DNA of 64,000 nucleotides from Takakia lepidozioides (lineage: Eukaryota > Plantae > Bryophyta), in contig CM060731.1 in assembly GCA_030704615.1 (NCBI GenBank), positions 55,800,001-55,864,000 of the forward strand. Direction: 5' to 3'. How positions within the stretch are numbered: the first letter of the stretch is position 1; every line of letters begins with the position of its first letter. Below the pieces are notes generated by a model, which was given only the letters and a program-made list of their open reading frames with translations, was not told where the DNA came from and did no database searches. The position numbers and the translations under genes are program-made. Positions 31,690 to 49,487 of this stretch are shown one piece after another.

Positions 31690-34600
31690 TGTGACGAGCC
31701 CTGAGCGCGCGTAGTCAGGGTGACGGCATATTAGTCTAGGGGGGTCGTGGTAAGTTGCGGTGTAGGTTGGGCTCACTAAACCGCCTATCCAACTGCGGTT
31801 AGTGTAGGGGGTCCATGGTCGTACATGGTGGCTATAATCACTATCTAAGTCCTACCGGCAAAGAGAAATCACGTACTCCTCTTCACAGGGCGAGTTTGCG
31901 TTTCTAAGTCCTACGGTATCCTACAATCTACTCAGTAACTGCCCTCCAAGTCTTTGTGTTTTATTGTCTAATTCCTACCGCCTAGGCCCCCGAGCCGCCT
32001 ATAGCCGGGACATGTTTTAATCCCTTCACAAGGCACCTGCCGAGCCTAGGAAGAAGAGGGAAAATCTTCCTCTCCCAATGCCCCTTCTTCGCCGAGTGCT
32101 TGAGTTCAAGTCACCTCTAATGGAAGGGCGAACGCTTCTTACCCCAGTGCCTAAATACTTTGTTTTAGCAAAGGAGTGGTCAAAATGTCTATCATCATCC
32201 AATAGGTTCACCAAGCTCAATAAGGTGGTTCTAAGCCCCTCAACTCAATAAGTTCAATCAGTTTAATCAAGCCTTTCAAGCTATAACGTGCACCACGTGC
32301 ATCTATCCTATTTAAGCAATCTCGCAAATCAGAAATGCTGGAAAATAAAAGAAATTAAGTAAATAAATAAATAAAACCTCCCCTATAGAAAATCATGTGG
32401 GGAATCCAAAGATATCCTTGGCGCCTAAAGATGCCCTTGGGAACCGAATGAGAACCGAGGAACACCCAGCAACCGTTCCCTGTCGCGGGGAACTGCCGCG
32501 GCTCTATCGGATGAATGAATCTCACTGAGAGCTCATCCCTGCCATTACATTCGTTAGTCCAGAACATGCATGCGTAAATAATAAAATAACCACTAGTGGG
32601 TCCAAGCCAGATTTTACCCCCTTACATTATTTTAAGACGCTGGTGCGCTTTCCCTCCGTGGAAAAAGTCAACCTCTACCTTGGGCTCTGACACAAAGGCT
32701 CACTGAAGCCGAGTTTTTAGGACAAAGTACTTCCTCTCCTCCCTTGTCTCTCGAGGTCTCCGCCTCTGGCTCACTGCTCACAGGCCCGCTTGGCTCTCTC
32801 TTGGAGTCATAAGAACGCTCCCCTCCAAGGCTACGTCCTCCCAAAATCCTAGATAGCCGTGGACCGCTGCGGTTAACGCCGGCGTCCGCCGGTCCGTCTC
32901 AACTTTTGGTTATCTCGCGGGTTAAGACCCGCACCCTGCTCGCACGCTTCAGGGCCTCACGCCTGAGCCACGCGGCTGATGGACTTGATCTCAGTACGAC
33001 TTAAGGTCAGCGCTGGGCCCGCTCCTCGTACGTCGTGGCTGGGCCACGGCTGCCTCCACGCTTTTAGTAATCGAGTACCTACTCTCTAGGCGCAGCACCC
33101 GGGCTCCTCCCAGGCTGCTCGCGACTTTGGGGCAGCTGCTGTCAAGCGAAATTAGCCCGCCCAAACCCCAAGACAAAAAAATACAACCCACCCTCCCCTA
33201 GGCCTCCATGGCTTGCTAGTGGGGGGGGGGGATTAGCACATAGTGGCCTTATAGTGGCCTTGTATCATAGATCCAGCCTACTGGCCTACCTTTGCCAGAG
33301 CTGGCTATATTCAAATTAGTAATCAAACACAAAGATTCCTTCTTCAAACAATTCAAATACAAGCCTCTATTGGTGCCCTTTCCAATAGGCTATGGGGTTC
33401 TTCCCCTGTCAATTCTAGACATGAAATAGTGGGTTTCCACAATGCACTCTTGTCGCGGCCCTTCGCCTTGAGGGCAGGGGGTCGGACACAAGAGGGGCTG
33501 CCCCTGTGGTGGGGGCAGTGGCAACAATAGATACGGGGGCTGAAGCACCCTTGAGTGCCCAAGGCTCTCAAGGAGGCGGAGGTGCTCACTAGGTGGAGCC
33601 CCGCACACCGGGTTGCGGTGGGGGTGGTTCCACGAGGGGTGGGGGTAGCTTAGTGGGACTTAGTGGGGGTGGCATAGGACTCACCATGGGGGCGGAGACC
33701 TTGTGGTGGGAGTTGTGGGGAGTCTTGGGACTCATCACGGTCCAATGGGGCCGTGGTGGGTGGGCCAAGACTCACCGCGACCCATCACCGGGAATCGAGG
33801 GTTTTCGTGATGGTTCGCCATAAAATGGCATGGTTGTTTGTGAAACCCCCGCGGACAGTCACAGAAGTATATATAGGGAGTAGTAACCCCGAGAACGGTG
33901 CAAGCCCGTTGGTGACCAAAAACTAGTGAGTAAGCGTGCGAGCCGGGAAGCGACCAAGGTGTGGGAAGCTGTTCCGGACTGCCATCGACCAAAGGGAATT
34001 TCCACTTGGCCCAAATTAAGAGAGGGTCAAGTGGGGGAGTAAAGGGGGACCGTTATGTCCCGGTGAGCAGCCGAAGCTCCGAGTTGGCCCGGCGGCCAGT
34101 TTGGGAGTTAGGCGCGTGCATCAAAGCGAATAACTATGACTTGAAGAGGAGCTTACCGAAGTAAGGTGCGCAACACTTGGTATCAGAGCTTAGAGTTCAG
34201 TACGCGATCGTCCTTGAGATCGGCCTCATCATGGGGTTGGGCAAGCCTAAGCGAATGATCCTGGTGAGCCCGATGGGGGCAACGTGTCACTGAAGCGGCA
34301 ATTTGAGAAGGCGGTTCATGCTTTTGAAAGCGAGGCCGCTCAAGAACGGGAGGTATGTGGGGAGTCGGAGCCCGAGGACTTCTTGGGGGCTCCGGAAAAC
34401 CAACAGATGTCTCCCATGCCAGCAGCCTTTTGGGAAGGGTTGTTGGCGCAGTTTGGCGGAACGTTGAAAGACGTGTTGAAGGCGGCTAATGCCACTTCCA
34501 CTAAGGCAAAGTTTAAGGTGAAGCCTAAGGAACCCGGCACCTTCGAGGGCGTCCAAAATCGGAAAGCACTAAACACCTGGCTCTTGGAGCTGGAGCAGTA

Positions 34601-34850
34601 CTTCCGGGCGGCCAAGTTGAGTGACGAGGATCGGGTGGAAGTGGCTCCCACTTATTTGAGGGGCTATGCTCAACAATGGTGGCAGAAACGCCTTCATGAC
34701 CGAGGTCCAAACCCAGAAACCTTGAAGTGGAGTGGGTTCAAGGAACTTACGAAAAGACAGTTTGTTCCCCTCAACGCGTCCTAGCTCGCCCGGGACAAGA
34801 TGAGGAATTTGACGCAAACGGATGACATTCGGGGATATGTTCATGCTTTC
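31690..34850 (+). mobile_element. Truncated Ty3/Gypsy element: probable 5' LTR ending CA at 34175, tRNA-Met PBS, partial gag
   Basis: PBS TGGTATCAGAGC at 34178-34189; gag motifs KEPGTFEG, WLLELEQYF, YLRGYAQQWW, LKWSGFKE. The LTR start at 31690 is a guess. Confidence 0.7.
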
Positions 34851-34920: not shown

Positions 34921-36089
34921 TCCGCGGAATTGGAATTTTTGTGCATTTATTGACGGTATTATGTCCTCATACCTCGATAATAGGGTTTGTTTCTCCTGGT
35001 CCAGGATGCGGAATGAGGTATTTCGGCGTCGTTATTCCACGTCACGACTTTAAAACATTGTGCAGGACAGGAAAGAGACACAAACTTGTAGCCCTCACAA
35101 GTGTCAAGTTATTTTACCACTAGTGTGAAACTAGCTAGGAAATAGCTAGCTTTTACATATTGACATTTGGGATTGGCCCAAGTGTCAATCCAGGGGTCAA
35201 GGCAGATTTAGGCCCTGGAGTGGTTATCTTCACGGCAAGCGCGGGAGGCTCATCTTTCTCGAGTTGAGCCTCACCGCGCCTAGCTATGGCGCCGTAGTGT
35301 GGATTCCCCATGGCGTGGGGTGCACTTGGCTTGACTTGTATTTGAGTGATGAGGTTATATATGCATGAGTTTATGCTTCAGCTTTGTGAGCTCGCATGAG
35401 CTTGTGCTTGTATTCTTCCTCTTTATCACTCGAGAAAGATGAGCTCGTATCTATGAGTGCTAGATACGAGTTAGTTGTAGCACTTGTGGTTTTTGCTTGA
35501 GAATGAGAGAAACCAAGTTGTTATGCAAGGAGCACCGTGGAGCTCTTGGTTGTTAGAAGCGGAGGCGATGTGGGTTACGAGGTGGTAAACCTTGGCATTC
35601 GATCTTCAGCTTCAGAGATGAAAGCACCATACTGTAGGTAATTCCAGAGCACCTTGATGGTTTCAGATTGTGTACATGCATGAGCAAGCACGATTGGGAA
35701 GAGGACCAGTCAAGAGCAGGTTATAGTGGCTTTGGTGGCAAAGCTGAGAACTGGACTTGGGAATGCGAGCTGTCATTGTGTGAAGGATTGCAAGACCAAG
35801 CGAAAGGGCTGATTTGGCTTGGGGCAAATCAGTGCACTTTGTGGAGTATGGTGAGATTGGGTTTCAATCTCGAGCTTCAGCATTGAGAGGGCTCTTGTCA
35901 TGGCGAGAGCAGGGCTGGAACAGGAGCTAAGAGGTGCGGCAAGGCCATGGAATGTGTACCTAGGGTTACAGAGCTTGGAAGAAGAGCTCTTGCACCACAA
36001 GAGAAGTGTCTTGTGGCTGGAAATGTAAGCCTTAGGGTTTCATGAGCTTGGCAAAGGCTATGGAGTGCTTAGTCTTGTCTTAGAGAGCA

Positions 36090-36530
36090 TCAAGGAGCCA
36101 AGGAGCCAAGATAGGGGGCTGATATCTCTTGTGTGAAGAGGTTGCATGTGTGGAGCATGTATTCAGCTCATTGAAGCTTCCATCTTCAAGCTTGGAGGAC
36201 AAGCAAGGAAGAGGGAAGGGCTGACTTCCCTTATGTGAGGGCAATGCATGTGTGGAGCATGTTATCAGCCTGGTGAAGGCTTGCACTTTCAGGTGTGGGA
36301 GTGCAAGAAAGGAAGGAAGGGGCTGGTTTCCATGTAGGGCATGTGGAGCATGCTTTCAGCATGCTGAAGCTTGTATTTTCAGGTTTGTGGGTGCAAGAAA
36401 TGAAGCAAAGGAGCTGATTCTTTTATGGTGAGAGTGGGGCATGTGTGGAGCATGCCTTCAGCCCATTGAGGCTCTTGTTTTCAAGCTTTAGAGAGCTAGA
36501 ACGGAAGGTCTAGGGCTGGTTTCCACTTGG
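36090..36530. repeat. Four degenerate ~100-bp tandem units (core GCATGTGTGGAGCATG)
   Basis: The core recurs near 36145, 36246, 36339 and 36439. Confidence 0.6.
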
Positions 36531-36964
36531 AGTGAAAGAAAAGCACTTGTAGGGCCTATGTGAGTTGGGGTTTCAACTTCAAGCTTGAAGGGAGCGCAAC
36601 TCTTGAAGCAGCAGGTGTAGGGGGCTGGAAGAGGCTCTAAGACAGATGCTATGGCCAAGGAGAGTGCTTGAATGAGTGCTCACAAGGGCTGGGAACCAGC
36701 AGGGCTTGGTTGTTTGCCATTGAGTTTAGTGGCGTGTTTGGGTAGGCTAAGTGAGAAAGAAGGCTTGGTTTGTGGCAACCACCTCATGGCTTAGGGCTAC
36801 TATGGTGGTGTGTGGGAGCCGAAAGAGCAAGGATACCTTGCTGATTTCCTCACAGCCACCATAGCTCGGTGGAAAGAAGCCTAGAGTCCAAGAGACACAA
36901 ACCCTAGCTTGGCGTGGCTAAACCCCTTGGAGAAATGGCTAAACTGCCAGAGCGGCCATGTGTG

Positions 36965-38100
36965 GGGCAGTGACAGGCTGTGGCAAGCTGTGACGGGCTG
37001 TGACGGGCTGTGTCAGGCTGTGGCGAGCTGTGACGGGCTGTGACGGGCTGTGACAGGCTGTGCCCTGTGCCCTGTGGGGCTGTGACGGGCTGTGTCAGGC
37101 TGTGACAGGCTGTGCCCAGTGGCCTTTTGGGGCTGTGACGGGCTGTGCGGGGCTGTGACAGGCTGTGCCCTGAGGCCTGTGGGGCTGTGACGGGCTGTGA
37201 CAGGCTGTGCCCATGGCCTTTGGGGCTGTGATGGGCTGTGAGGGGCTGTGACAGGCCGTGCCCGAGGCCTTTGAAGCTGTGACAGGCTGTGATGGGCTGT
37301 GACAGGCTGTGCCTGTGCCCTGTGGGGCTGTGACGGGCTGTGTCAGGCTGTGACAGGCTGTGCCCAGTGGCCTTTTGGGGCTGTGACGGGCTGTGCGGGG
37401 CTGTGACAGGCTGTGCCCTGAGGCCTGTGGGGCTGTGACGGGCTGTGACAGGCTGTGCCCATGGCCTTTGGGGCTGTGATGGGCTGTGAGGGGCTGTGAC
37501 AGGCCGTGCCTGAGGCCTTTGCGGCTGTGATGGGCTGTGAGGGGCTGTGACAGGCCGTGCCTGAGGCCTTTGAGGCTGTGACGGGCTGTGAGGGGCTGTG
37601 ACAGGCCGTGCCCATGGCCCTTGGGGCTGTGACGGGCTGTGAGGGGCTGTGACGGGCTGTGAGGGGCTGTGACAGGCCGTGCCTAAGGCCTTTGAGGCTG
37701 TGACGGGCTGTGAGGGGCTGTGACAGGCCGTGCCCATGGCCTTTGGGGCTGTGACGGGCTGTGAGGGGCTGTGACAGGCCGCGCCTGAGGCCTTTGGGGC
37801 TGTGACGGGCTGTGACAGGCCGTGCCTGAGGCCTTTGGGGCTGTGATGGGCTGTGACAGGCCGTGCCTGAGGCCTTTGAGGCTGTGACGGGCTGTGAGGG
37901 GCTGTGACAGGCTGTACCCATGGCCTTTGGGGCTGTGACGGGCTGTGAGGGGCTGTGACAGGCCGCGCCTGAGGCCTTTGGGGCTGTGACGGGCTGTGAG
38001 GGGCTGTGACAGGCTGTGCCTGAGGCCTTTGAGGCTGTGACGAGCTGTGAGGGGCTGTGACAGGCTGTGCCCAGTGGCCTGTGGGACTGTGACGGCTGTG
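36965..38100. repeat. Minisatellite array of the 10-bp unit GGGCTGTGAC/AGGCTGTGAC with higher-order periodicity
   Basis: Directly visible over about 1.1 kb. Confidence 0.95.
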
Positions 38101-38587
38101 ACCAGTGAGCTGTGTGGGCCTGTGCTGGTCTGTAGTGGCCCGTGTTGACCTGTGGATGGCCTATGCTGACTCGTGGAGGCACTGGTGGACTAAGGACTGG
38201 CATGTGGTCTGGAAGGCCGAATTTTGAAGCTCGTGGAGGGCGGTTTGAGGAGTATCTTCATGATATTCCCATGGTCATGCAAGTTCAGGTGTAGGCTATG
38301 TTAGGAACTTAGTATTCCAAACCATAAGCCGCAACAGGTTCTCTACCCGGTTACCTTGTGGAGAGGGGGTTAGGGACATGTTCATGACCGGTTGAGTGTC
38401 AACACGGAGGTGCCACTAGTTGCTGGGGACAGTGCGGTTCGAGCACTAGCGATACTAGTGGGTACACGAGACGAGGTGTGCGGTTTAGGCCACCTTCACC
38501 TCCTGTGTCTTCCACGGAAGGTTCTGATTCGGATTGTGAATCAGGAGGGCTCATACCGGCGGTGCAAGTTGTTTCTTTGCCATTATT

Positions 38588-41140
38588 GTGGGACACAATG
38601 GAGGAGATGTATGGAGCTACCAAGGGGCCACGAAGGTACTCTGGGCGGTGGGCACCATTGAGTTGGATGATTTTATCCAAGAGTTTGATAGTTGGTGTGA
38701 TTTGCAGCAAATGCGCAATCCACAACTATTTACGCCGTTCATGGCATGGAAAGGGCTGTTTCAGCACCTTGAGGGGCCGCCTATGGATGATTACCATGAG
38801 TTCAGGCGGGGGCATGAGGTTGAGATCGAGGAGTGGAGGATGTACTGGTCACCCGACTATGTCTCCATCACTAGGGGCACTAGAGCCACGAGGGCAGTGG
38901 CTACACCTGCCGCTGCACCGGCAGCTTCAGCAAGCAGCAGTGGGACTGGTGGTACAGTAGCTACGACGTCCACCCAAGCCACTACCGCACCAGCACTAGC
39001 ACCTGTGCCTGCCTTCAACCCTGTTGTGGAGTTCTTCGAAGAGTTGAGAGGGAACTACCAAGGGGTGAGGACAGAGAAGTTGCGGAGCTTGCAAGAGTTC
39101 CAACGGAAGCCGACCGAGAGCTTGAGGGAGGCTTTCACTCGCATGAGGCGCTTGATAAATGTAACCCAAGGGGTTACGGAAGCTCAGGCAGTCCAATTCT
39201 GGTATGGGATATTGGACAAGGAGCTGAGGAGAAGGGTGCGGGATGCAACTCTCCTACAAGCGGCCCAACCCACCTTAGCAAATGTGTTTTTGCTGGCAGA
39301 GCGGATAGAGCTCAACATGGTGGAGGAACGAGTGGTCATGGTGGGATTTGCTAAGGAGACACCACGGGGTAGTGGTGCTCCTAGCCAACCACTACCTCAA
39401 CGTGCTCAAGGCAACAAGGGGGCTCAGGTGAAGCTCAGGGAAGGGCAGAGAGGACCTCAAATGCAGGGGTCTCTCCCTTCATTTGCTGGCCAACAACGGG
39501 CGGATGTGGTGTGCTGGACATGTGGAGGACCCCATGTCAAGAAGGATTGCCCAGAGGGAGGCAAAGGGTCGGCACATGCACAGCCTGCACAGTTGCAGTG
39601 TGGGCATTGTGGCAAGCACGGGCATGGAGAGGCCCAGTGTTATAGTTTGCATCCTGAGTTGCGCCCAGGCCAGTTCCAAGGGAACAATGGTGGCCGGGGG
39701 CGAGGTGGAGCAGCCCAGAGAGGACGAGGTGGCCAGCCACGAGGCCAAGGGCAAGCTCAACGTGGCCAAGGACGCGGAGGTCAGGGTGTTGACCAAGGCA
39801 TGGCCAACCGGCTTCAGCAGCTAGAGCAGAGGCTCGCTGCCATGGCTACAGCTCAGGTGGTACCGGCTCTAAGGCCGGATGGTCCACCTCCTGCTCCTGA
39901 GGGAGGAGATATGGGAGGCATGGGATTCATGTGTGGAGCAGCACTACCACTAGTGCAGGTGGAGTCTGCTGCAGCCGTGACTCGAGGAGCAGCACGAGTT
40001 CCTGAGCCACGAGGTGCAGAGGTGGAGTTGGATCCACAGCGTGGGGAGGCAAGCCGTCAGGCTAGGCTTCCTCAGTCATTCACATTGGCGGAGACAGTGT
40101 CGACGCCATCCATGGCACCTAGTTCTCGCCCGACTGTTACCGAGGCGGAGGTTACTATGCCATTGGGGAGAGCTACACGGGTAGCACCACTACCTAGTGT
40201 TGCCAAGGCTACGGCAGCTAGTGTGCTGCTAGGAGCGGCCACATCTGTGTGCCAGGCTCCATTGTTCTCGGCTACCATGATTGCGACGCCGGGGGTAAGA
40301 CCAGCTGAGGTGTTCAGGCTGGCAGCTACACTCTGTGAGAGTGGGGAGGTTACTTCATCTTCTGCGGAGATAGTAGGAGGTGTAGTGCCGGAGGGATCCT
40401 CGGATTTGAGGGTCAAGACTGCCACGGCGGCGCCATGGCAAGCTGCAGCTGCCAGATTGATGGAGCTGCCAGCTAGGCCAGCCATTGAGCGCGCCATGGT
40501 GACACCTGGAGTTGTCATGTTAGACAACCAGGATGGCATTTTCTGTTTGAGTGGACCGGCAGGCAAGAGGTACCGGCCACTGCGAGTCTTGTTGGACTCG
40601 GGAGCTCAGCCACTGATGCTGGGCAGAGCTGCTATTGCAGGCTTGGGCCTCACGGAGGCGGATATGGAGCCTTGTCCTTTCCAGATACAGACGTCTCTGG
40701 GAGGATCGGAGCAGGCTCGGGGCATGACACGGCATGAGTTGGCTATCAGACTACGGCCGGATCACCCTACAGATGGCTCAGTGATGCGAGCCAAGGCCAT
40801 TGTGACAGACGCAGTCTCATACGATGTCCTGGTTGGTGGGGCAGTGTTGTACCCCATGGGCTTCACCCTGGATTTTTGGGAGGAGTCAGCTTCCTATAGG
40901 CCTGCATGGCAGTCAGGGGAGGGCCGGCGTGTGCAGCTCCCTGTGACGTTCATAGGAGGAGTTGCGGTTGCCCAGCGAGGCAAGATGCCGACACTAGCAG
41001 CATTCACAGCGGCAGTGAGTTGGCCTAGAGAGTTGCTTGAGGGCAATGCTCATTCAGAGGATGTACCACCTCCGGGAGAGCAGGATGACATGTATGGTAT
41101 GGCGGAGTTGCCTACCATGGTTGCTCAGACTCCATTGTGA
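38588..41140 (+). CDS. Gag (two zinc knuckles, RGG-rich region) plus aspartic protease
   Basis: CWTCGGPHVKKDC, CGHCGKHGHGEAQC, VLLDSGAQ, YDVLVG; the terminal TGA is TGG in the duplicate copy. Confidence 0.9.
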   Translation: MGHNGGDVWSYQGATKVLWAVGTIELDDFIQEFDSWCDLQQMRNPQLFTPFMAWKGLFQHLEGPPMDDYHEFRRGHEVEIEEWRMYWSPDYVSITRGTRATRAVATPAAAPAASASSSGTGGTVATTSTQATTAPALAPVPAFNPVVEFFEELRGNYQGVRTEKLRSLQEFQRKPTESLREAFTRMRRLINVTQGVTEAQAVQFWYGILDKELRRRVRDATLLQAAQPTLANVFLLAERIELNMVEERVVMVGFAKETPRGSGAPSQPLPQRAQGNKGAQVKLREGQRGPQMQGSLPSFAGQQRADVVCWTCGGPHVKKDCPEGGKGSAHAQPAQLQCGHCGKHGHGEAQCYSLHPELRPGQFQGNNGGRGRGGAAQRGRGGQPRGQGQAQRGQGRGGQGVDQGMANRLQQLEQRLAAMATAQVVPALRPDGPPPAPEGGDMGGMGFMCGAALPLVQVESAAAVTRGAARVPEPRGAEVELDPQRGEASRQARLPQSFTLAETVSTPSMAPSSRPTVTEAEVTMPLGRATRVAPLPSVAKATAASVLLGAATSVCQAPLFSATMIATPGVRPAEVFRLAATLCESGEVTSSSAEIVGGVVPEGSSDLRVKTATAAPWQAAAARLMELPARPAIERAMVTPGVVMLDNQDGIFCLSGPAGKRYRPLRVLLDSGAQPLMLGRAAIAGLGLTEADMEPCPFQIQTSLGGSEQARGMTRHELAIRLRPDHPTDGSVMRAKAIVTDAVSYDVLVGGAVLYPMGFTLDFWEESASYRPAWQSGEGRRVQLPVTFIGGVAVAQRGKMPTLAAFTAAVSWPRELLEGNAHSEDVPPPGEQDDMYGMAELPTMVAQTPL

Positions 41141-41309
41141 GGCACGAGCAAGGATTTGCAGCGGGATGCTAATCGACGGTGCAACAAGCCTGGGTGGAGG
41201 CTTTTGTACCGTCAGGAGAGGAGGAGAGTGTGGGGATTGCACCAGGACCACCTCAATTGTCTCCATTGGACACCACACCTATTGTGTGGCAGTCTCCGGA
41301 TGAAGGCAT

Positions 41310-42262
41310 TTGTCTTCTGGACTTGTTTGGCGGGATCAGCACCGGATTGGCTGCTGTGTTACAGCAGGTGTACGAGTTCGACATTACCTGTATGTGGAGA
41401 GGGATGAGACTGCACGACGCGTTTCACTTCGCCATGTTGCTCAGTTGGTGCAGCGGTACCCTGAGTTGTTGTCGGTGTCTGCAATTCGTGGATATCAGCA
41501 GGCCTTGCCAGCAGACATTTCGTTGCTGGGGGCGCAGGATTTGGAGCGGGTTGGCTCCATTGATCTGGTAGTGGCAGGTTGGCCCTGCCAAGGGCATTCA
41601 TCAGCCGGCATGGCAATGGATTGCGAGACTCGAGGTCGGGTCTGTTTTGGGAGATGGTGCGGGTTTTGCGCCACTTGCAGCTTCATCAAGCTGTATCTCC
41701 AGCATACATCTTGGAGAATGTGCCACTGATGGGCGATTCTCGGGCCAGGGTGATGGCCAGTGTGCATCAAGTCCGGTCATGGCTTGGGTCAGCAGTGTTG
41801 CTAGATGCAGCTACAGTGGGGTCACGGGCTCATCGTCCACGGCTATGGTGGACTAACATGATGCCACCCGCACTGCTCAAGCGTGCATTTGATGGGGTGC
41901 AGCGGCCAGCACATCTCACAGTGGATAACATTCTGGACACAGGGAGGCAGTCTCAACGTGTGAGACACGATGACCGTTCGCCTTTGGCAGTGGTCAACAA
42001 GGTGGGTCAACCACGAGCAGCATTACCTACACTGCTCAGCTTCCCAGGATCGCATGCTTTCCGGGATAGTGGACCTGGCCTCCTATGGGATGCTCAGTTG
42101 CAGCAGTTAGTGGAGCCTAATGCTGACGAGCGTGAGCGGGCAATGGGTTTTACCACTGGTACCACGGCGGTGTCGTCTCTTTACTGAGGCATCACGTCGT
42201 CAAGTGTTGGGGCAAGCAATGGATCTCAATTGCTTGACCTGGATTATCAGCTTGGCTCTAGC
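41310..42262 (+). pseudogene. First, frameshifted copy of the DNMT3-like C5 methyltransferase domain
   Basis: Nearly identical to 44285-45240 but with single-base indels. Confidence 0.85.
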
Positions 42263-44233
42263 TGAGCAACGCAGAGTGCGGAATACACTTCCCTCAATGG
42301 TCTCTCTGCCTACCGAGATGGTACAGGCAGTGAGTGGGGGCGAGCATATGAGGACCACGGGGTGCATGCATCCATGGCACACGTGGGAGGTGCTCGAGGT
42401 TCAGAGGGAGTTGGCAGCCAAGGCGGCTGTGATGGATGAGGTTGGGGATTCTTCTCGGGTTGAGGAGGTCCTCAAGGATGAGATGATGGGGCAGGATGAG
42501 GCCTTGTCATTGACTGAGCAGGTAGGGAGTACTGCTCAAGAGGTTGCAGCATAGCAACCACGGGACGCGTCCTCTACCTCTAAGCCCACTGGACTTAAGG
42601 TTGTAGTTACGGAGGACAATTGGGAGCCTGACATTGGACCCATTGTCACCGGAGGAGAGAGACGACGTATACGGCGGTTCCTGAGGGCTTACAGGAATTG
42701 CTTTGCCTTCAGTTTGAAGGACTTGGGAGCACTCAAGGGTCAAGAGATCCGTATTGAGTTGGCCACTGACACGCCAATCTTTCGGAGACCCTATAGATAC
42801 AGTGACATGGAGAGGTCTTTGATTCAGATGAGGACTCAAGATCTCTCGGAGGCAGGTTTGGTGGAGCTCTCTGGTGGAGAGTATGCTTCAGCCACAGTGA
42901 TGCCAGCCAAGAAGGATGTCTATGGCAATTGGACGGAGAGACGTATGTGCGGTGATGTGACATGTCACACACGAGTTCCTGAGCCACGAGGTGCAGAGGT
43001 GGAGTTGGATCCACAGCGTGGGGAGGCAAGCCGTCAGGCTAGGCTTCCTCAGTCATTCACATTGGCGGAGACAATGTCAACGCCACCCATGGCACCTAGT
43101 TCTCGCCCGACTATTACCGAGGCGGAGGGTACTATGCCATTGGGGAGAGCTACACGGGCAGCACCACTACCTAGTGTTGCCAAGGCTACGGCAGCTAGTG
43201 TGTTGTTAGGAGCGGCCACATCTGTGTGCCAGGCTCCATTGTTCTCGGCTACCATGATTGCGACGCCGGGGGTAAGACCAGCTGAGGTGTTCAGGCTGGC
43301 AGCTACACTCTGTGAGAGTGGGGAGGTTACTTCATCTTCTGCGGAGATAGTGGGAGGTGTAGTGCCGGAGGGATCCTCGGATTTGAGGGTCAAGACTGCC
43401 ACGGCGGCGCCATGGCAAGCTGCAGCTGTCAGGTTGATGGAGCTGCCAGCTAGGCCAGCCATTGAGCGCGCCATGGTGACACCTGGAGTTGTCATGTTAG
43501 ACAACCAGGATGGCATTTTCTGTTTGAGTGGACCGACAGGCAAGAGGTACCGGCCACTGCGAGTCTTGTTGGACTCGGGAGCTCAGCCACTGATGCTGGG
43601 CAGAGCTGCTATTGCAGGCTTGGGCCTCACGGAGGCGGATATGGAGCCTTGTCCTTTCCAGATACAGACGTCTCTGGGAGGATCGGAGCAGGCTCGGGGC
43701 ATGACACGGCATGAGTTGGCTATCAGACTACGGCCGGATCACCCTACAGATGGCTCAGTGATGCGAGCCAAGGCCATTGTGACAGACGCAGTCTCATACA
43801 ATGTCCTGGTTGGTGGGGCAGTGTTGTACCCCATGGGCTTCACCCTGGATTTTTGGGAGGAGTCAGCTTCCTACAGGCCTGCATGGCAGTCAGGGGAGGG
43901 CCGGCGTGCGCAGCTCCCTGTGACGTTCATAGAAGGAGTTGCGGTTGCCCAGCGAGGCAAGATGCCGACACTAGCAGCATTCACAGCGGCAGTGAGTTGG
44001 CCTAGAGAGTTGCTTGAGGGCAATGCTCATTCAGAGGATGTACCACCTCCGGGAGAGCAGGATGACATGTATGGTATGGCGGAGTTGCCTACCATGGTTG
44101 CTCAGACTCCATTGTGGGGCACGAGCAAGGATTTGCAGTGGGATGCTGATCGACGGGTCCAACAAGCCTGGGTGGAGGCTTTTGTACCGTCAGGAGAGGA
44201 GGAGAGTGTGGGATTGCACCAGGACCACCTCAA

Positions 44234-45532
44234 TTGTCTCCATTGGACACCACACCTATTGTGTGGCAGTCTCCGGATGAAGGCATTTGTCTTCTGGACT
44301 TGTTTGGCGGGATCAGCACCGGATTGGCTGCTGTGTTACAGGCAGGTGTACGAGTTCGGCGTTACCTGTATGTGGAGAGGGATGAGACTGCACGACGCGT
44401 TTCACTTCGCCATGTTGCTCAGTTGGTGCAGCGGTACCCTGAGTTGTTGTCGGTGTCTGCAATTCGTGGATATCAGCAGGCCTTGCCAGCAGACATTTCG
44501 TTACTGGGGGCGCAGGATTTGGAGCGGGTTGGCTCCATTGATCTAGTAGTGGCAGGTTGGCCCTGCCAAGGGCATTCATCAGCCGGGCATGGCAATGGAT
44601 TGCGAGACTCGAGGTCGGGTCTGTTTTGGGAGATGGTGCGGGTTTTGCGCCACTTGCAGCTTCATCAAGCTGTATCTCCAGCATACATCTTGGAGAATGT
44701 GCCACTGATGGGCGATTCTCGGGCCAGGGTGATGGCCAGTGTGCATCAAGTCCGGTCGTGGCTTGGGTCAGCAGTGTTGCTGGATGCAGCTACAGTGGGG
44801 TCACGGGCTCATCGTCCACGGCTATGGTGGACTAACATGATGCCACCCGCACTGCTCAAGCGTGCATTTGATGGGGTGCAGCGGCCAGCACATCTCACAG
44901 TGGATAACATTCTGGACACAGGGAGGCAGTCTCAACGTGTGAGACACGATGACCGTTCGCCTTTGGCAGTGGTCAACAAAGTGGGTCAACCACGAGCAGC
45001 ATTACCTACACTGCTCAGCTTCCCAGGATCGCATGCTTTCCGGGATAGTGGACCTGGCCTCCTGTGGAATGCTCAGTTGCAGCAGTTAGTGGAGCCTAAT
45101 GCTGACGAGCGTGAGCGGGCAATGGGTTTTACCACTGGTACCACGGCGGTGTCGTCTCTTACTGAGGCATCACGTCGTCAAGTGTTGGGACAAGCAATGG
45201 ATCTCAATTGCTTGACCTGGATTATCAGCTTGGCTCTAGCTGAGCAACGCAGAGTGCGGAATACACTTCCCTCAATGGTCTCTCTGCCTACCGAGACGGT
45301 ACAGGCAGTGAGTGGGGGCGAGCATATGAGGACCACGGGGTGCATGCATCCATGGCACACGTGGGAGGTGCTCGAGGTTCAGAGGGAGTTGGCAGCCAAG
45401 GCGGCTGTGATGGATGAGGTTGGGGATTCTTCTCGGGTTGAGGAGGTCCTCAAGGATGAGATGATGGGGCAGGATGAGGCCTTGTCATTGACTGAGCAGG
45501 TAGGGAGTACTGCTCAAGAGGTTGCAGCATAG
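44234..45532 (+). CDS. DNMT3-like C5 cytosine DNA methyltransferase domain (part of the polyprotein)
   Basis: Motif I DLFGGIS, II YVERD, IV AGWPCQGHS, VI ILENV, VIII AHRPRLWWTN, IX ERERAMGF, X RRQVLGQAM, in canonical order. Confidence 0.93.
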   Translation: MSPLDTTPIVWQSPDEGICLLDLFGGISTGLAAVLQAGVRVRRYLYVERDETARRVSLRHVAQLVQRYPELLSVSAIRGYQQALPADISLLGAQDLERVGSIDLVVAGWPCQGHSSAGHGNGLRDSRSGLFWEMVRVLRHLQLHQAVSPAYILENVPLMGDSRARVMASVHQVRSWLGSAVLLDAATVGSRAHRPRLWWTNMMPPALLKRAFDGVQRPAHLTVDNILDTGRQSQRVRHDDRSPLAVVNKVGQPRAALPTLLSFPGSHAFRDSGPGLLWNAQLQQLVEPNADERERAMGFTTGTTAVSSLTEASRRQVLGQAMDLNCLTWIISLALAEQRRVRNTLPSMVSLPTETVQAVSGGEHMRTTGCMHPWHTWEVLEVQRELAAKAAVMDEVGDSSRVEEVLKDEMMGQDEALSLTEQVGSTAQEVAA

Positions 45533-47317
45533 CAACCACGGGACGCGTCCTCTACCTCTAAGCCCACTGGACTTAAGGTTGTAGTTACGGAGGACAATTG
45601 GGAGCCTGACATTGGACCCATTGTCACCGGAGGAGAGAGACGACGTATACGGCGGTTCCTGAGGGCTTACAGGAATTGCTTTGCCTTCAGTTTGAAGGAC
45701 TTGGGAGCACTCAAGGGTCAAGAGATCCGTATTGAGTTGGCCACTGACACGCCAATCTTGCGGAGACCCTATAGATACAGTGACATGGAGAGGTCTTTGA
45801 TTCAGATGAGGACTCAAGATCTCTCGGAGGCAGGTTTGGTGGAGCTCTCTGGTGGAGAGTATGCTTCAGCCACAGTGATGCCAGCCAAGAAGGATGTCTA
45901 TGGCAATTGGACGGAGAGACGTATGTGCGGTGATTACCGGCCTGTAAATCGTCAGACCAAGTCCGATAAGTATGCCATGCCAACACCAGAGGAGATCTTT
46001 GATGCCATCGGGCATGCTAAGGCCTTTAGCACTTTGGATTTACGATCCGGATATCACCAGTTGCCAATCAAGGAGGCGGACAAGCAGAAGACGGCATTCT
46101 GGGGGATCAATGAGCACGGCAAGGATTGCCTATATCAGTGGCGGTTCTTACCATTTGGGCTTAAGAATGCTCCTGCAGAGTTTCAGAGAGTCATGGATAG
46201 GATTCTAGCAGGGGTGGACTTTGCTCGGTGCTACATAGATGACATCATCATCTTTAGTGTTACGATGGAGGAGCATGAGAGACACCTTCAGGTGGTATTG
46301 GAGCGCTTGAGAGCGCACGGATTGAAGTTGCATCCGGGGAAGTGCAAGTTTTTCCACAACCAGATTGAGTATCTGGGTCACATGATATATCCTGGAGGAT
46401 TGGGGGTACAGCAGACTAAGGTAGAGGCCATTGCACAAATTCCACGCCCCACGGATGTGAGCCGAGTTCGAGCTTTCATGGGGTTGGCAAACTATTATAG
46501 ACGGTTTGTCAAGGGATTTAGTACCATTGAAAAGGCTCTAACCAAGCTGACCAAGGTGGACCAGGAGTGGCAGTGGGAAGATGAGCAGGAACAAGCTTTT
46601 CAAGAGCTCAAGGCGAGGTTGACCTCGGCGCCTATCTTGAGACGACCTATCAGGGGGCGTCCCTTTCAGCTGCATACGGATTGGAGCATGCTGGGGCTTG
46701 GAGCGGTGCTCACACAGGTGGATGATGAGGGAAGAGAGTTCGTAGTGGCTTACGCTAGCCGCTCGAACAACGCTGCAGAGGCTAAGTACAGCTCATATGA
46801 GGGGGAGTGCTTAGCTGCAGTGTGGGCCGTGGCACACTTCAGGTGCTATCTATACGGCAATCTTTTCACCCTTGTCACGGATCACCAGCCACTCAAGTGG
46901 TTGATGGAGTCAGACAAGCTTACGGGGAAGCTTGCACGGTGGGCACTTATACTCCAGGAGTATGACTTTCAGGTTGTGCATCGACCGGGTTTGGTCAATC
47001 GGGATGCGGATGGATTGAGTCGCAATCCATGCATGAGCCAGCAGGATGACACTGGAGCTCGGTGGCATGGTGAGACGGACGAGGAGATGGTGCCGGGATG
47101 GCACGCATCTGCATTTTTGTGTATCTTGGCATCGGGAGGTCAGATTGGACCTACAACAGGGATGACTGTAGACGGAGTGTCTGAGGACCCTGAGGCTAGT
47201 GATGAGCTAGGTGGTGCCAGAGATATACATGAGGATTCGGCTGTGTTGAACTACCTCCGCACGGGAGACACGGCAGCCATTGTGACTGCCAGGGAGAGGG
47301 ATCGGATCCTGCAATGA
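45533..47317 (+). CDS. Reverse transcriptase and RNase H
   Basis: RMCGDYRPVN, LDLRSGYHQ, LPFGLKNAPAEFQ, YIDD; RH motifs HTDWS, YEGECLA, TDHQPL, DADGLSR; ends at an in-frame TGA. Confidence 0.95.
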   Translation, partial: QPRDASSTSKPTGLKVVVTEDNWEPDIGPIVTGGERRRIRRFLRAYRNCFAFSLKDLGALKGQEIRIELATDTPILRRPYRYSDMERSLIQMRTQDLSEAGLVELSGGEYASATVMPAKKDVYGNWTERRMCGDYRPVNRQTKSDKYAMPTPEEIFDAIGHAKAFSTLDLRSGYHQLPIKEADKQKTAFWGINEHGKDCLYQWRFLPFGLKNAPAEFQRVMDRILAGVDFARCYIDDIIIFSVTMEEHERHLQVVLERLRAHGLKLHPGKCKFFHNQIEYLGHMIYPGGLGVQQTKVEAIAQIPRPTDVSRVRAFMGLANYYRRFVKGFSTIEKALTKLTKVDQEWQWEDEQEQAFQELKARLTSAPILRRPIRGRPFQLHTDWSMLGLGAVLTQVDDEGREFVVAYASRSNNAAEAKYSSYEGECLAAVWAVAHFRCYLYGNLFTLVTDHQPLKWLMESDKLTGKLARWALILQEYDFQVVHRPGLVNRDADGLSRNPCMSQQDDTGARWHGETDEEMVPGWHASAFLCILASGGQIGPTTGMTVDGVSEDPEASDELGGARDIHEDSAVLNYLRTGDTAAIVTARERDRILQ

Positions 47318-48667
47318 GCCAAGAGGTTCAAGTGGGAGGGGATACACCTACTTCGAGTGTGGGAGGATGGTCGGGTGAGGATTGTGCCTCACCCCACATA
47401 GCGTGCACGGTTAGTGCGGCATGCCCATGAGGAGTTGGGGCATTTTGGAGTGCGACGCACTCACAGTTTACTGCAGGGGCAGTATTGGTGGTGTGGTATG
47501 CATACAGAGGTGCAACAGTTTGTGGCTAGGTGCATGGTGTGTGACAGGGTGCGTGCTTCATTCAACGCCCCTACACCACAGTTGCATCCTTTACCTATCA
47601 TGGGATTGGGCTACAGGTGGAGTCTTGACTTCGCAGGACCGTTGCCACTGACTATGCGCCACCACAGATATGTGTTGGTGATGGTGGAGCACTTCTCCAA
47701 GTGGATTGAGTTGGTTCCATTGCCTGACAAGGCTAGTGAGGGGGCTGCGTATGCATTCTTGGATCGTGTGCTTAGCCGATTTGGTGCTCCAGCTGAGGTA
47801 CTCACGGACCAAGGGAGAGAGTTCTTGGGGGAGTTTCAGGCTTTGTGTGATAAAGCCTTGATAGACCACCGCACCACTTCTCGGGATCATCCTGAGGCCG
47901 ATGGCTTAGCAGAGAGAGTTGTTCAGACGGTGAAGAGGGGTTTGCGCAAGTATGGCTTGCAGAAGGGACACCTAGGAGATTGGGATCTTCAGGTTCCTTG
48001 GTTAGCCATGGGCTACAGGTTCAGCAAACAAGCATCACTTGCCTCCTTCTCACCATATTTCCTTCTCTTTGGCCGAGAGCCGGATTTGCCTGCAGCCATT
48101 CGTAGGGACACTGCTCAAGTCCTTAACCTTGACGATCCGGACATGTGGGTACGTGCATGTGATCAGCGTGCAGAGTTGTTCAAGAAAGTCATGCCCATGG
48201 CTTTTGAGAACCTTGCCATTGCACAGCACCGTGATACGTTGAGGTATGCCACTATACGTGGTGGAGGATATCGTCCTGGGGTTCGGAGGTTTAGCCCTGG
48301 TGACTATGTTTATTTGCAGCAGACTGCTCCTACGACTCTGGATGTTACTGCAGGGCGTGTTATTCTGAGGGTTCGAGAGGTGTTGCCCTCAGGGGTCCTG
48401 ATCTTAGAGGGTCGGGATGGCATGACTTGGAAAGACCATGTGCGTAATTGTGCGCCATGTCACCTTCCCAATGTCGATGGCAGAGTTGACCCAAACTTGG
48501 CAGTGGTACCTGCAGGTTTGAGGTGCATGCTCTGTGGGTCTGCCAAAGGGGCAGCCACCATGCTGGTGTGTGATCGGTGCTCAAGGGGTTGGCATATGGG
48601 ATGCTTGACACCACCCCTTGAGAAGGTTCCTGACGGAGATTGGTTGTGTCCACACTGCTTGGGATAG
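47318..48667 (+). CDS. Integrase (HHCC, DDE) with C-terminal PHD finger; in-frame TAG at 47399
   Basis: HEELGH..CMVC, SLDF, TDQG, LAERV; PHD CMLC..MLVCDRC..WHMGCLTPPL..PDGDWLCPHC at 48524-48658. Confidence 0.93.
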
Positions 48668-49487
48668 TGGCAGTGGACATGACTGGAGGCAACTAACAAG
48701 ACATGGGAGGCCAAGCTCATAGGAGTCAATACATGAGATCCCAAGCTCAAGTTCACAGGTTGCAAGACGGCGACTAACGATGGGGCAACTCTTGCACCCG
48801 GCCTCTTGATCTATCGAGTTTGAGTGTAGTAGGGATAGTGGTGGAGGACTTAGTGAGGCTATGGTCACTATCACATCTTGTGGCTACCTGGACTTAGAGG
48901 GACCTAAGCACCAGCTAGGGGGGCGATTGTGTGGACTAGTGACTGCCATAGTGGGCAGCGTAGTGGCAGCCTAGTGACTGACTAGTTGTAGCCTAGTGGT
49001 TGGCTTAGTGGCTGGACTAGTGGTAGACTAGTGGTATACTAGTGTGTGGTGTGCACATGTGTTGTGTGGTTTTGGACAGCGATGTAGTTGTGTAGCGATA
49101 TGTATGCGCACGACACAAGCCATTGTGCTGACAGGATAATATATTTAGGGTCAGACGACAGTTCAACTTGCAAACCCCATTCAACACAACATCAACACCA
49201 CATTGACATGACAGAAAATTGCCATACACGCTCGAAATACAAACATCAGGAAACTACAAGTTTTTATTCTGTACAGCGACAACTCCGAGCTTCCATCATC
49301 AGAAATGGACCACTACGGCATAAGAAACCTGTGGATGTACCATAACCCGGAGCTTGTGCCCTCCAATTACGCTCCACAATGATCCTTAACGCTCTATGCT
49401 GCTGCGTTGACATCCACAACACGAACCACCGAGTCGTCGAACCACAGGTCCAGAATTAGGAGTGGTGTGGTAGTCGTCCACTGCGCC

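Follow-up and report, generated by a model that had tools for sequence, protein, structure and literature searches.

The 64,000-nucleotide stretch of Takakia lepidozioides contig CM060731.1 analysed here (positions 55,800,001 to 55,864,000; hereafter the window) contains a Ty3/Gypsy retrotransposon that carries its own DNMT3-like cytosine methyltransferase. The insertion measures 14,014 bp (window 35102–49115), is flanked by a 4-bp target duplication, and encodes in its plus-strand frames (38540–48667) Gag, zinc knuckles, protease (PR), a C5 methyltransferase (DNMT), reverse transcriptase (RT), RNase H (RH), integrase (IN) and a PHD finger. This copy is dead, because the Gag frame changes near 38645 and stops interrupt Pol at 47315 and 47399. 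The methyltransferase is nonetheless a trait of the whole family and is under purifying selection (dN/dS 0.09–0.16). We lean towards the view that the window holds a defunct member of a Gypsy-DNMT3 family in which a leaky stop would have the DNMT packed at capsid-protein amounts, there to methylate the element's own double-stranded cDNA before or during insertion.

The methyltransferase is real and is DNMT3-like by sequence and fold, the label being derived from its ranking against solved structures. The open reading frame (ORF) 44150–45532 matches PF00145 above the curated cut-off (E 5.7e-13, 49.4 bits, cut-off 22), the profile with which a first-pass annotation, made from the letters alone, had proposed to check the domain. 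That annotation had described DNMT3-like motifs with catalytic PC, ENV and RxR, and all are found in unpermuted order: I at 44300, II at 44372, PCQ (IV) at 44555, ENV (VI) at 44690, RxR (VIII) at 44810, IX at 45107 and X at 45173. Ranked against 48 sequences of solved structures, the domain is closest to DNMT3A (E 3.7e-11) and DNMT3B (3e-8), followed by DRM (1e-5, motifs I–IV only) and HhaI (4e-4), and a profile search of solved structures gives the identical order with DNMT3A/B first. An AlphaFold model of the domain (mean pLDDT 76, pTM 0.81) likewise finds DNMT3A as its best Foldseek match (E 1.7e-15), the top rows listed all being DNMT3 entries. A DRM enzyme was ruled out, as motifs I to X are unpermuted and the DRM matches span only motifs I–IV. 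So was a host plant DNMT3 gene, which is multi-exon with a C-terminal DUF3444 (PMC6453930), whereas the domain here lies in a single frame without introns and has no DUF3444 Pfam match. No host DNMT3 appears among the 150 listed of 649 cluster-representative profile matches (E 1e-30; the profile includes flanking columns). The placement of the domain between protease and RT, also proposed at first pass, agrees with the protease motif DSG at 40595 and its duplicate upstream and with an RT that begins at 45716.

The domain is not peculiar to this copy. In three DNA runs, two of them from one sample, DNMT depth was 0.68, 0.95 and 0.69 of RT–IN depth, a ratio that is not a copy number, and 26 to 303 times the depth just past the element end. 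Loci were taken as the best 80 of 177 metagenome loci found, 60 of which contain both DNMT and RT; the DNMT is present in all 80 loci fetched with it, and retrotransposon domains are linked to it in 75 of 75 long new matches. Protein searches returned 188 near-length and 82 longer relatives, the named ones being from Marchantia polymorpha, M. paleacea, Calypogeia, Riccia, three Sphagnum species, Closterium and one chlorophyte, and a search with the RT extended the list to Coleochaete, Klebsormidium, Haematococcus, Pleodorina and Tetraselmis. Ferns, lycophytes and seed plants are absent from the named family matches, most matches carrying no name, and viral contigs gave only five short matches (37–48%) to other methyltransferases. 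The window DNMT is 72–76% identical to the best liverwort proteins as against 45% to Klebsormidium, and the window Gag–PR region is 49% identical to Marchantia Mp4g09160 over residues 17–838. In the RT tree the window element falls beside Marchantia and two unnamed loci (SH-aLRT 98), as the first branch of that group. All DNMT-bearing rows, including the window and K. nitens, form one RT clade (41 of 52 rows, SH-aLRT 99; support 0.933 in a FastTree RT tree of 125 rows), the outgroups being only those sequences that the search returned. The host is likely a land plant.

Constraint on the domain can be measured where synonymous change is unsaturated, most distant pairs being saturated in dS. DNMT dN/dS is 0.12, 0.11, 0.09 and 0.16 in the four such pairs among six named locus pairs, and RT dN/dS is 0.03 in the sole such named pair. 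Between the window DNMT and its relatives pN is 0.17–0.35 and pS 0.73–0.80. High values among close decayed copies (0.89 for one DNMT pair; RT median 0.47) are what dead copies should show. Among 60 near-complete DNMT domains, of which only seven are stop-free and most are decayed, the catalytic C is kept in 59 and the E of ENV in 58; in an alignment of distant members C is kept in 59 of 64 (five gaps), E in all 64 and R in 62, and motif I is kept. The first-pass annotation had named a one-off capture, a dN/dS near 1 and an algal contaminant as outcomes fatal to its proposal. All three are contradicted: the domain is family-wide at RT-like depth, selection is purifying where measurable, and the nearest named relatives are liverworts. 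Given these results, with the lack of introns and of DUF3444, it is highly improbable that we are dealing with a single captured host DNMT3 or with algal contamination.

The window element is a member of the published KnitGypsy-Dnmt3 lineage of Klebsormidium nitens, from which it differs in its stop. The kinship with charophyte retrotransposon DNMTs suggested at first pass thus holds, as one RT clade unites the two and the domain order is the same. Each is a Gypsy element, with a DDE integrase after RT–RH, whose DNMT3-like domain is unpermuted and free of introns, and the K. nitens protein KFL_009030040 (GAQ92009.1) is likewise ordered PR-DNMT-RT-RH-IN (P0398: PR 59–170, DNMT 311–565, RT 713–934). 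Purifying selection on the DNMT is a further common feature, and a figure legend gives the K. nitens element DIRS-like split repeats A-coding-B-A-B (PMC5890265), the window copy being a short form. The Takakia element differs in that its DNMT ends ORF1 at a conserved stop, whereas the K. nitens DNMT lies within the Pol ORF; in its great abundance and its likely land-plant host; and in sequence (DNMT 45%, RT–RH 44% identical). The text of that paper has nothing on a PHD finger, on readthrough, on self-priming or on a short form, and it regards the capture as confined to the lineage of K. nitens (de Mendoza et al., 2018; PMC5890265). Apart from that paper, literature searches turned up the family by name only in a 2026 preprint, as ‘Gypsy-DNMT3’ of streptophytes (bioRxiv 10.64898/2026.05.21.726589), and two papers write ‘streptophytes’ without giving species. 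A land-plant element of the lineage is not named in passages of PMC12344493, PMC6317226, PMC6453930, PMC10952607, PMC11982613 or PMC11244446, nor in supplement files of PMC5890265 and PMC12344493; figures, tree files and preprint supplements may include Marchantia sequences. The occurrence of the family in Marchantia, Calypogeia, Riccia, Sphagnum, further charophytes and chlorophytes may be new to print, and the same may be true of the conserved, likely leaky stop with its covarying stem and of the self-primed permuted termini.

The DNMT has not kept one place throughout this lineage. A large branch has the layout RH-DNMT-IN (P0402, P0415 and P0399 of Haematococcus and Pleodorina, and some 90 of 134 new matches); since this branch nests beside the K. 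nitens element in the RT tree, the DNMT likely changed place within the element once. The relocated DNMT is still inside the packaged polyprotein. Among single relatives, the 1,053-aa protein P0198 unites a PHD finger with a PCIF1-type (PF12237) and a DNMT3-like domain, and P0421 is a Gypsy polyprotein with a PHD finger and a Dam-type domain (PF05869) that adjoins the DNMT clade in the FastTree RT tree. P0311, an RT-RH-IN-PHD protein of the DNMT clade, comes from a Coleochaete scutata transcriptome assembly and hints at transcription there. Four members (P0017, P0194, P0250, P0456) are filed in bacterial genome bins, likely through eukaryotic contamination.

A TAG at 45530–45532 stands between DNMT and RT and recurs in both copies of an internal tandem duplication. 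The first-pass annotation had put the DNMT in the polyprotein frame; the RT frame is indeed shared, but this TAG separates the two. The stop is not damage, because it is conserved in relatives. Of 60 loci, 59 have an in-frame stop here, and in 55 CAA or CAG comes next (52 with TAG or TAA by projection, three more, L062, L064 and L076, on inspection); four loci have TAA or TAG after the stop, and L043 has a sense codon. With near-duplicates removed CAA or CAG follows in 26 of 30, while lesion stops inside domains, taken as a control, are so followed in just 22 of 794. Among the 40 listed of 471 differences between host copies none falls on the stop, which has no bearing on its conservation. The window reads TAG CAA CCA, preceded by A, and the distant loci L063 and L065 read TAG CAG TTA, both fitting UAG-CAR-YYA, the type I readthrough signal of tobamoviruses (PMC3542737). 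The spacer from the stop to the RT motif is 78, 90, 96 or 99 nt and in frame each time. In all six sequences folded a stem starts about 10 nt past the stop (z −0.6 to −3.0); its arms vary between lineages, yet in two sets of five the true partners pair best (rank 1 of 120 permutations), and the window stem beats synonymous recoding (1 of 500). Twenty-six relatives of 1,228–1,451 aa, left from 28 once two of the RH-DNMT-IN layout are set aside and including six Marchantia gene models, end behind the DNMT without RT, and proteins so ending form one clade in the DNMT tree (0.949).

From these sequence features we judge it very probable that RT-RH-IN-PHD is made by readthrough of the conserved stop, in which case Gag-PR-DNMT would likely be the main product and RT-RH-IN-PHD the readthrough product. 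Several observations weigh against this. The exact CAR-YYA hexamer is found in the window and only five of 60 loci, and 45 of 60 have CAA-CCC-ATG, which would allow reinitiation too. The L065 stem fails the recoding test (340 of 500 recodings pair equally well), folding of the whole region is unexceptional in most sequences, and the arms were picked after the folds had been viewed. Many deeper relatives, including Klebsormidium and Closterium, have DNMT and RT in one frame with no stop, although some of these are gene models that may skip a stop; because of such relatives, bulk expression of the DNMT is not required across the lineage. Production of Pol as a separate product, through reinitiation or splicing, is unlikely by comparison. 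The in-frame ATG two codons past the stop in those 45 loci would suit it, and there are plant elements, Ogre and Bianca, with two ORFs divided behind the protease (PMC6317226). The window, L013, L063 and L071, on the other hand, have no ATG near the stop (the first Met of the window lies 85 codons on, inside RT), and neither the frame kept across four spacer lengths nor the CAR and stem after the stop is what separate initiation predicts. Compared with tobamovirus type I, most fetched relatives have CAA CCC, and an extended stem, as predicted here, is listed mainly for types II and III (PMC3542737). In the fission yeast element Tj1, too, Gag ends at a stop, which there precedes the protease and here follows protease and DNMT (PMC4600332).

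The termini are unusual as well. The window element has no twin long terminal repeats (LTRs); it starts with TG at 35102 in a segment A and ends with CA at 49115 in a segment B, between two copies of CAAG, and an exact 4-bp duplication bounds six of eight two-ended copies, the window copy included. Right ends could be resolved in 21 of 27 PHD-bearing sequences: 15 stop at B, the short form to which the window copy belongs, and six add two bases and A. Of these six, three (L021, L051, L059) have a whole B-A-B and two may be assembly collapses. Other host copies also run on as B-GC-A. Depth drops 26- to 300-fold past B, which is only ~115–190 bp long. A polypurine tract adjoins B, and A ends in CA followed directly by one arm of an 18-bp stem, a geometry that is repeated with other letters in L063 (16 bp) and in L009, L050 and L077 (17–21 bp), a stem arm lying 23–33 nt behind a TATA-like box where such a box was found. 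With a polypurine tract next to B and the likely self-priming stem next to A, the cDNA would end in B...A and not in A...B. Ordinary reverse transcription would yield a cDNA with the LTR B-GC-A, whereas inserted copies end at the inner CA-GC-TG palindrome.

It is about an even call whether these termini represent a self-primed, permuted LTR whose cDNA is circularised and then cut by integrase at the internal CA-GC-TG. A one-LTR circle cut there would give A-internal-B, the form in the window, and a two-LTR circle cut at the upstream site would give A-internal-B-GC-A-B, the long form. The alternative, to which we assign somewhat less than an even chance, is that the short form arises by B–B recombination after normal integration of a long form produced along a DIRS/Ngaro-like path, with no internal cutting of a circle. 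The mirror product expected of a two-LTR circle is absent, being found in none of 22 left ends as against six of 21 right ends (Fisher p 0.009), which tells against circle cutting and for recombination, and the 4-bp duplications on both forms are what B–B recombination would preserve. Recombination does not readily account for a short form that is in the majority despite so short a B, for a polypurine tract and stem positioned as they are, or for the A|B joint of long forms, where the two segments meet end to end (exactly in L021 and L051, across filler in L059). A further difficulty for circle cutting with self-priming is that the stem exceeds all controls in only five of 17 scored sequences, 12 other decayed copies not rising above them and six of 23 being unscorable. 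Parallels exist for parts of this circular route: the self-primed Ty3 elements Tf1 and Tj1 of fission yeast also place a stem between the likely transcript 5′ end and a site behind the left repeat (PMC4600332), although they and plant Tcn1 have ordinary twin LTRs and no DNMT (PMC4600332, PMC6317226). In retroviruses integrase can cut a palindromic CA..TG in circular cDNA (PMC4372172); there it is a side route at the LTR–LTR joint, whereas here the proposed site would lie inside the LTR and be the sole route.

What might the enzyme do? Every step from translation onward in the following scheme is one that we infer. A long-form copy would be transcribed from A; most ribosomes would end behind the DNMT, giving Gag–protease–DNMT in bulk, and few would continue into RT, RNase H and integrase-PHD. 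The protease would likely free the DNMT inside the particle, where it would meet, and likely methylate, the new double-stranded cDNA; an episomal stage would likewise present naked DNA for the enzyme to act on. The PHD finger would likely steer integrase, or insertion, to chromatin, and the pre-methylated new copy could enter the host CG/CHG maintenance system at once. The top PDB matches of this finger are CHD4, KDM5B, PHF12, KDM5A and ATXR5, and the closest also include BAZ2 and UHRF1. PHD fingers of CHD4, KDM5, ATXR5, BAZ2 and UHRF1 are readers of H3 tails unmethylated at K4. Intact family members are probably catalytically active, judging from the residues kept, and that their own cDNA is the substrate seems to us somewhat the better guess.

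Two further readings must be weighed. The first, that the domain is kept for a non-catalytic role such as cDNA or RNA binding, particle structure or decoying of host DNMT3 partners, we regard as fairly improbable. It draws on the Klebsormidium enzyme of this lineage, which gave no methylation in yeast, a result that its authors did not take as decisive and that human DNMT3B shared there (PMC5890265), and on motif IV, in which EC stands in place of PC in 19 of 64 and in 69 of 134 deeper relatives; both facts also count against an active enzyme. Opposed to it are the catalytic C, the E, both R and motif I, kept in very distant members, and the PC retained in the window and its near relatives. 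SymbioDIRS DNMT3 domains do methylate CG in yeast (PMC5890265). The second, a low-probability one, is that an active enzyme acts together with the PHD-integrase complex on host DNA at the insertion site or on other chromatin. Reader and writer sit on the same element throughout the lineage, and in the RH-DNMT-IN layout the enzyme adjoins integrase. Nor does the element show extra CpG loss (CpG observed/expected 0.47–0.59, against 0.42–0.49 for neighbouring long interspersed nuclear elements (LINEs) and 0.20 for another Gypsy element), which fits a host target and speaks against methylation of the element itself. In the window element, however, the DNMT is on ORF1 and the PHD finger on ORF2, so that the two would be on separate chains after processing, and capsid-level amounts would better suit a substrate in the particle than a single site. 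Of the candidate substrates we prefer the element's own cDNA.

The features of the window copy are collected in Table 1. The first-pass annotation had let the element run from 38588 to 48667, bounds that are too narrow, as Gag homology begins near 38448 and the element itself extends well beyond both. The tandem segment is 2,965 bp long, and its two copies differ at 37 of 2,967 columns (32 substitutions and five single-base indels); all five indels are within homopolymer runs, so that some may be sequencing errors. Transitions make up 29 of the 32 substitutions, 7 at 250 CG, 11 at 376 CHG and 11 at 1,036 CHH cytosines, a pattern that fits host CG and CHG methylation provided that the changes ran from C to T. 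Copy 1 has the stop at 41138–41140 and three more frame breaks, and copy 2 has only the break at 44209, between protease and DNMT. The copies had been thought to complement each other into an intact Gag-PR-DNMT; no lesion is common to both, as this requires, but the whole is not restored, since the Gag frameshift near 38645 lies outside the duplication. The Pol stop at 47315–47317 is private to this copy, about 99% of the depth reading otherwise in all three DNA runs. A perfect 14-bp palindrome at the duplication joint (42956–42969, TGTGACATGTCACA) is similar to the family's terminal CA..TG site, and the GC-rich 10/51-bp tandem array of the 5′ region (36965–38177) has a related stretch at 63453–63543.

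Table 1. Features of the Gypsy-DNMT3 copy, in window positions.
Feature	Position	Strand	Basis or remark
Left 4-bp target-site duplication, CAAG	35098–35101	+	Same as 49116–49119
Terminal segment A, TG start, CA end; likely promoter-bearing part of LTR	35102–35428	+	Same start after segment B in other copies; A at both ends in relatives
5′ arm of 18-bp stem; likely transcript 5′ end and self-primer	35247–35264	+	Pairs with 35428–35445; longest control stem 14 bp
3′ stem arm directly behind A; likely self-priming site replacing tRNA primer-binding site	35428–35445	+	Same geometry, other letters, in L063, L009, L050, L077
Long 5′ non-coding region with tandem arrays, including 10/51-bp array 36965–38101	35446–38447	+	Strand skew as in coding part; nested insertion may be present
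Gag N-terminus, out of frame with remainder; single-copy lesion	38448–38645	+	tblastn of relatives moves from frame 3 to frame 2 at ~38645
Gag, zinc knuckles, linker, aspartic protease (DSG 40595); premature stop 41138–41140	38645–41140	+	PF03732 weak, E 0.005
Internal tandem duplication, copy 1: linker-PR-DNMT-stop-RT start; DNMT in pieces	39993–42956	+	98.75% to 42970–45934
13-bp filler at duplication joint, within 14-bp palindrome	42957–42969	no strand	Sequence
Internal tandem duplication, copy 2; single frame break at 44209	42970–45934	+	Break absent from many other family copies
DNMT3-like C5 cytosine methyltransferase domain, every catalytic motif present	44279–45241	+	PF00145, PDB ranking, Foldseek, motif places
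Conserved ORF1 stop TAG, then CAA CCA; likely programmed readthrough site	45530–45538	+	Copy 1 equivalent at 42552–42560
Predicted extended RNA stem-loop 3′ of stop	45543–45646	+	Fold z −1.97; arm covariation
Reverse transcriptase (YIDD 46232) and RNase H	45716–47029	+	PF00078 E 2.6e-33, PF17917 E 5.3e-36
Two premature stops (47315–47317, 47399–47401) ahead of integrase	47315–47401	+	First private to window copy
DDE integrase, H2C2 finger; D 47627, D 47807, E 47912	47402–48100	+	PF17921 E 3.5e-15, PF00665 E 7.9e-14
Integrase C-terminal PHD finger, then stop	48518–48667	+	PF00628 E 1.4e-10
Polypurine tract abutting segment B	48917–48926	+	Sequence; kept in relatives
Terminal segment B, CACGACA end	48927–49115	+	Depth drop beyond; end kept in relatives
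Right 4-bp target-site duplication, CAAG	49116–49119	+	Same as 35098–35101

The Pfam assignments (the order Gag-PR-DNMT-RT-RH-IN, with the DDE residues present) bear out the Gypsy identity given at first pass, and several other classes were ruled out. A chromovirus is excluded by an integrase that ends in a PHD finger and lacks a chromodomain, and by an RT outside the chromodomain-bearing rows; Troyka by TG...CA ends and a 4-bp duplication, as against CG...CG, 3 bp and a range restricted to animals (PMC12440569); and DIRS/Ngaro by rve and H2C2 domains and a DDE integrase in place of a tyrosine recombinase. The REXdb lineages Phygy and Selgy are described as short, with ordinary LTRs and no DNMT or PHD finger named (PMC6317226). 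Other retrotransposons carry cytosine methyltransferases. SymbioDIRS-Dnmt3 and SymbioLINE-Dnmt of Symbiodinium do so, SymbioDIRS also with DNMT3 and split repeats (PMC5890265), but these have a tyrosine recombinase or are LINEs, whereas the window element has a DDE integrase and a PHD finger. The EpiLTRs of Cymbomonas and Euglena differ in having a DNMT4-related enzyme, DAM and a chromodomain (bioRxiv 2026.05.21.726589), the window element having no DAM.

The remainder of the window is LINE and Gypsy debris. Between 4575 and 30650 a recent LINE burst has left, on both strands, at least five near-identical (97–100%) 3′ ends as well as three long copies that encode endonuclease and RT. A Gag-like fragment (34251–34784) stands directly left of the element, and a second, unrelated Gypsy element without DNMT (57144–60496, minus strand; CpG 0.20) is accompanied by a Gag fragment at 62847–63425 (minus strand). 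An ORF of 499 codons (51354–52853, minus strand) has no Pfam match and may be a methyltransferase-like gene adjoining the element; its look-alikes in the Atlas are unnamed clusters, one ‘trimethylguanosine synthase (fragment)’ and one N6/N4 methyltransferase cluster (0.88).

Since 2018 the question has stood why a transposon should encode an enzyme of the kind by which it is normally silenced, the known hosts Symbiodinium and Klebsormidium being hard to work with. A range that takes in land plants, a conserved and likely leaky stop, and termini that read as permuted together add a testable mechanism. At least six Marchantia polymorpha gene models (Mp4g09160, Mp8g17980, MpVg00370, MpVg00540, Mp5g06330, Mp5g06860) are uninterrupted Gag-PR-DNMT, which brings the question within reach of a genetic model for which methylomes and mutants exist. 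Judging from the conserved stop, the enzyme of the land-plant branch is likely produced in structural amounts, so that fewer roles would suit it, and the termini hint at a replication route unlike that of standard LTR elements, such that tools relying on twin LTRs would miss an abundant family. Counts of bryophyte DNMT genes, and readings of methyltransferase mutants, may be affected. Taken to its full extent, and as a speculation that we consider doubtful as a whole, these elements would be a green-lineage Ty3 clade with its attachment site in mid-LTR and insertion from circles only, the land-plant branch of which would load hundreds of DNMT3 molecules per particle by way of a leaky stop; new copies would be born methylated, and the intact Marchantia copies would mean that early land plants had a second source of de novo methylation, one that is mobile.

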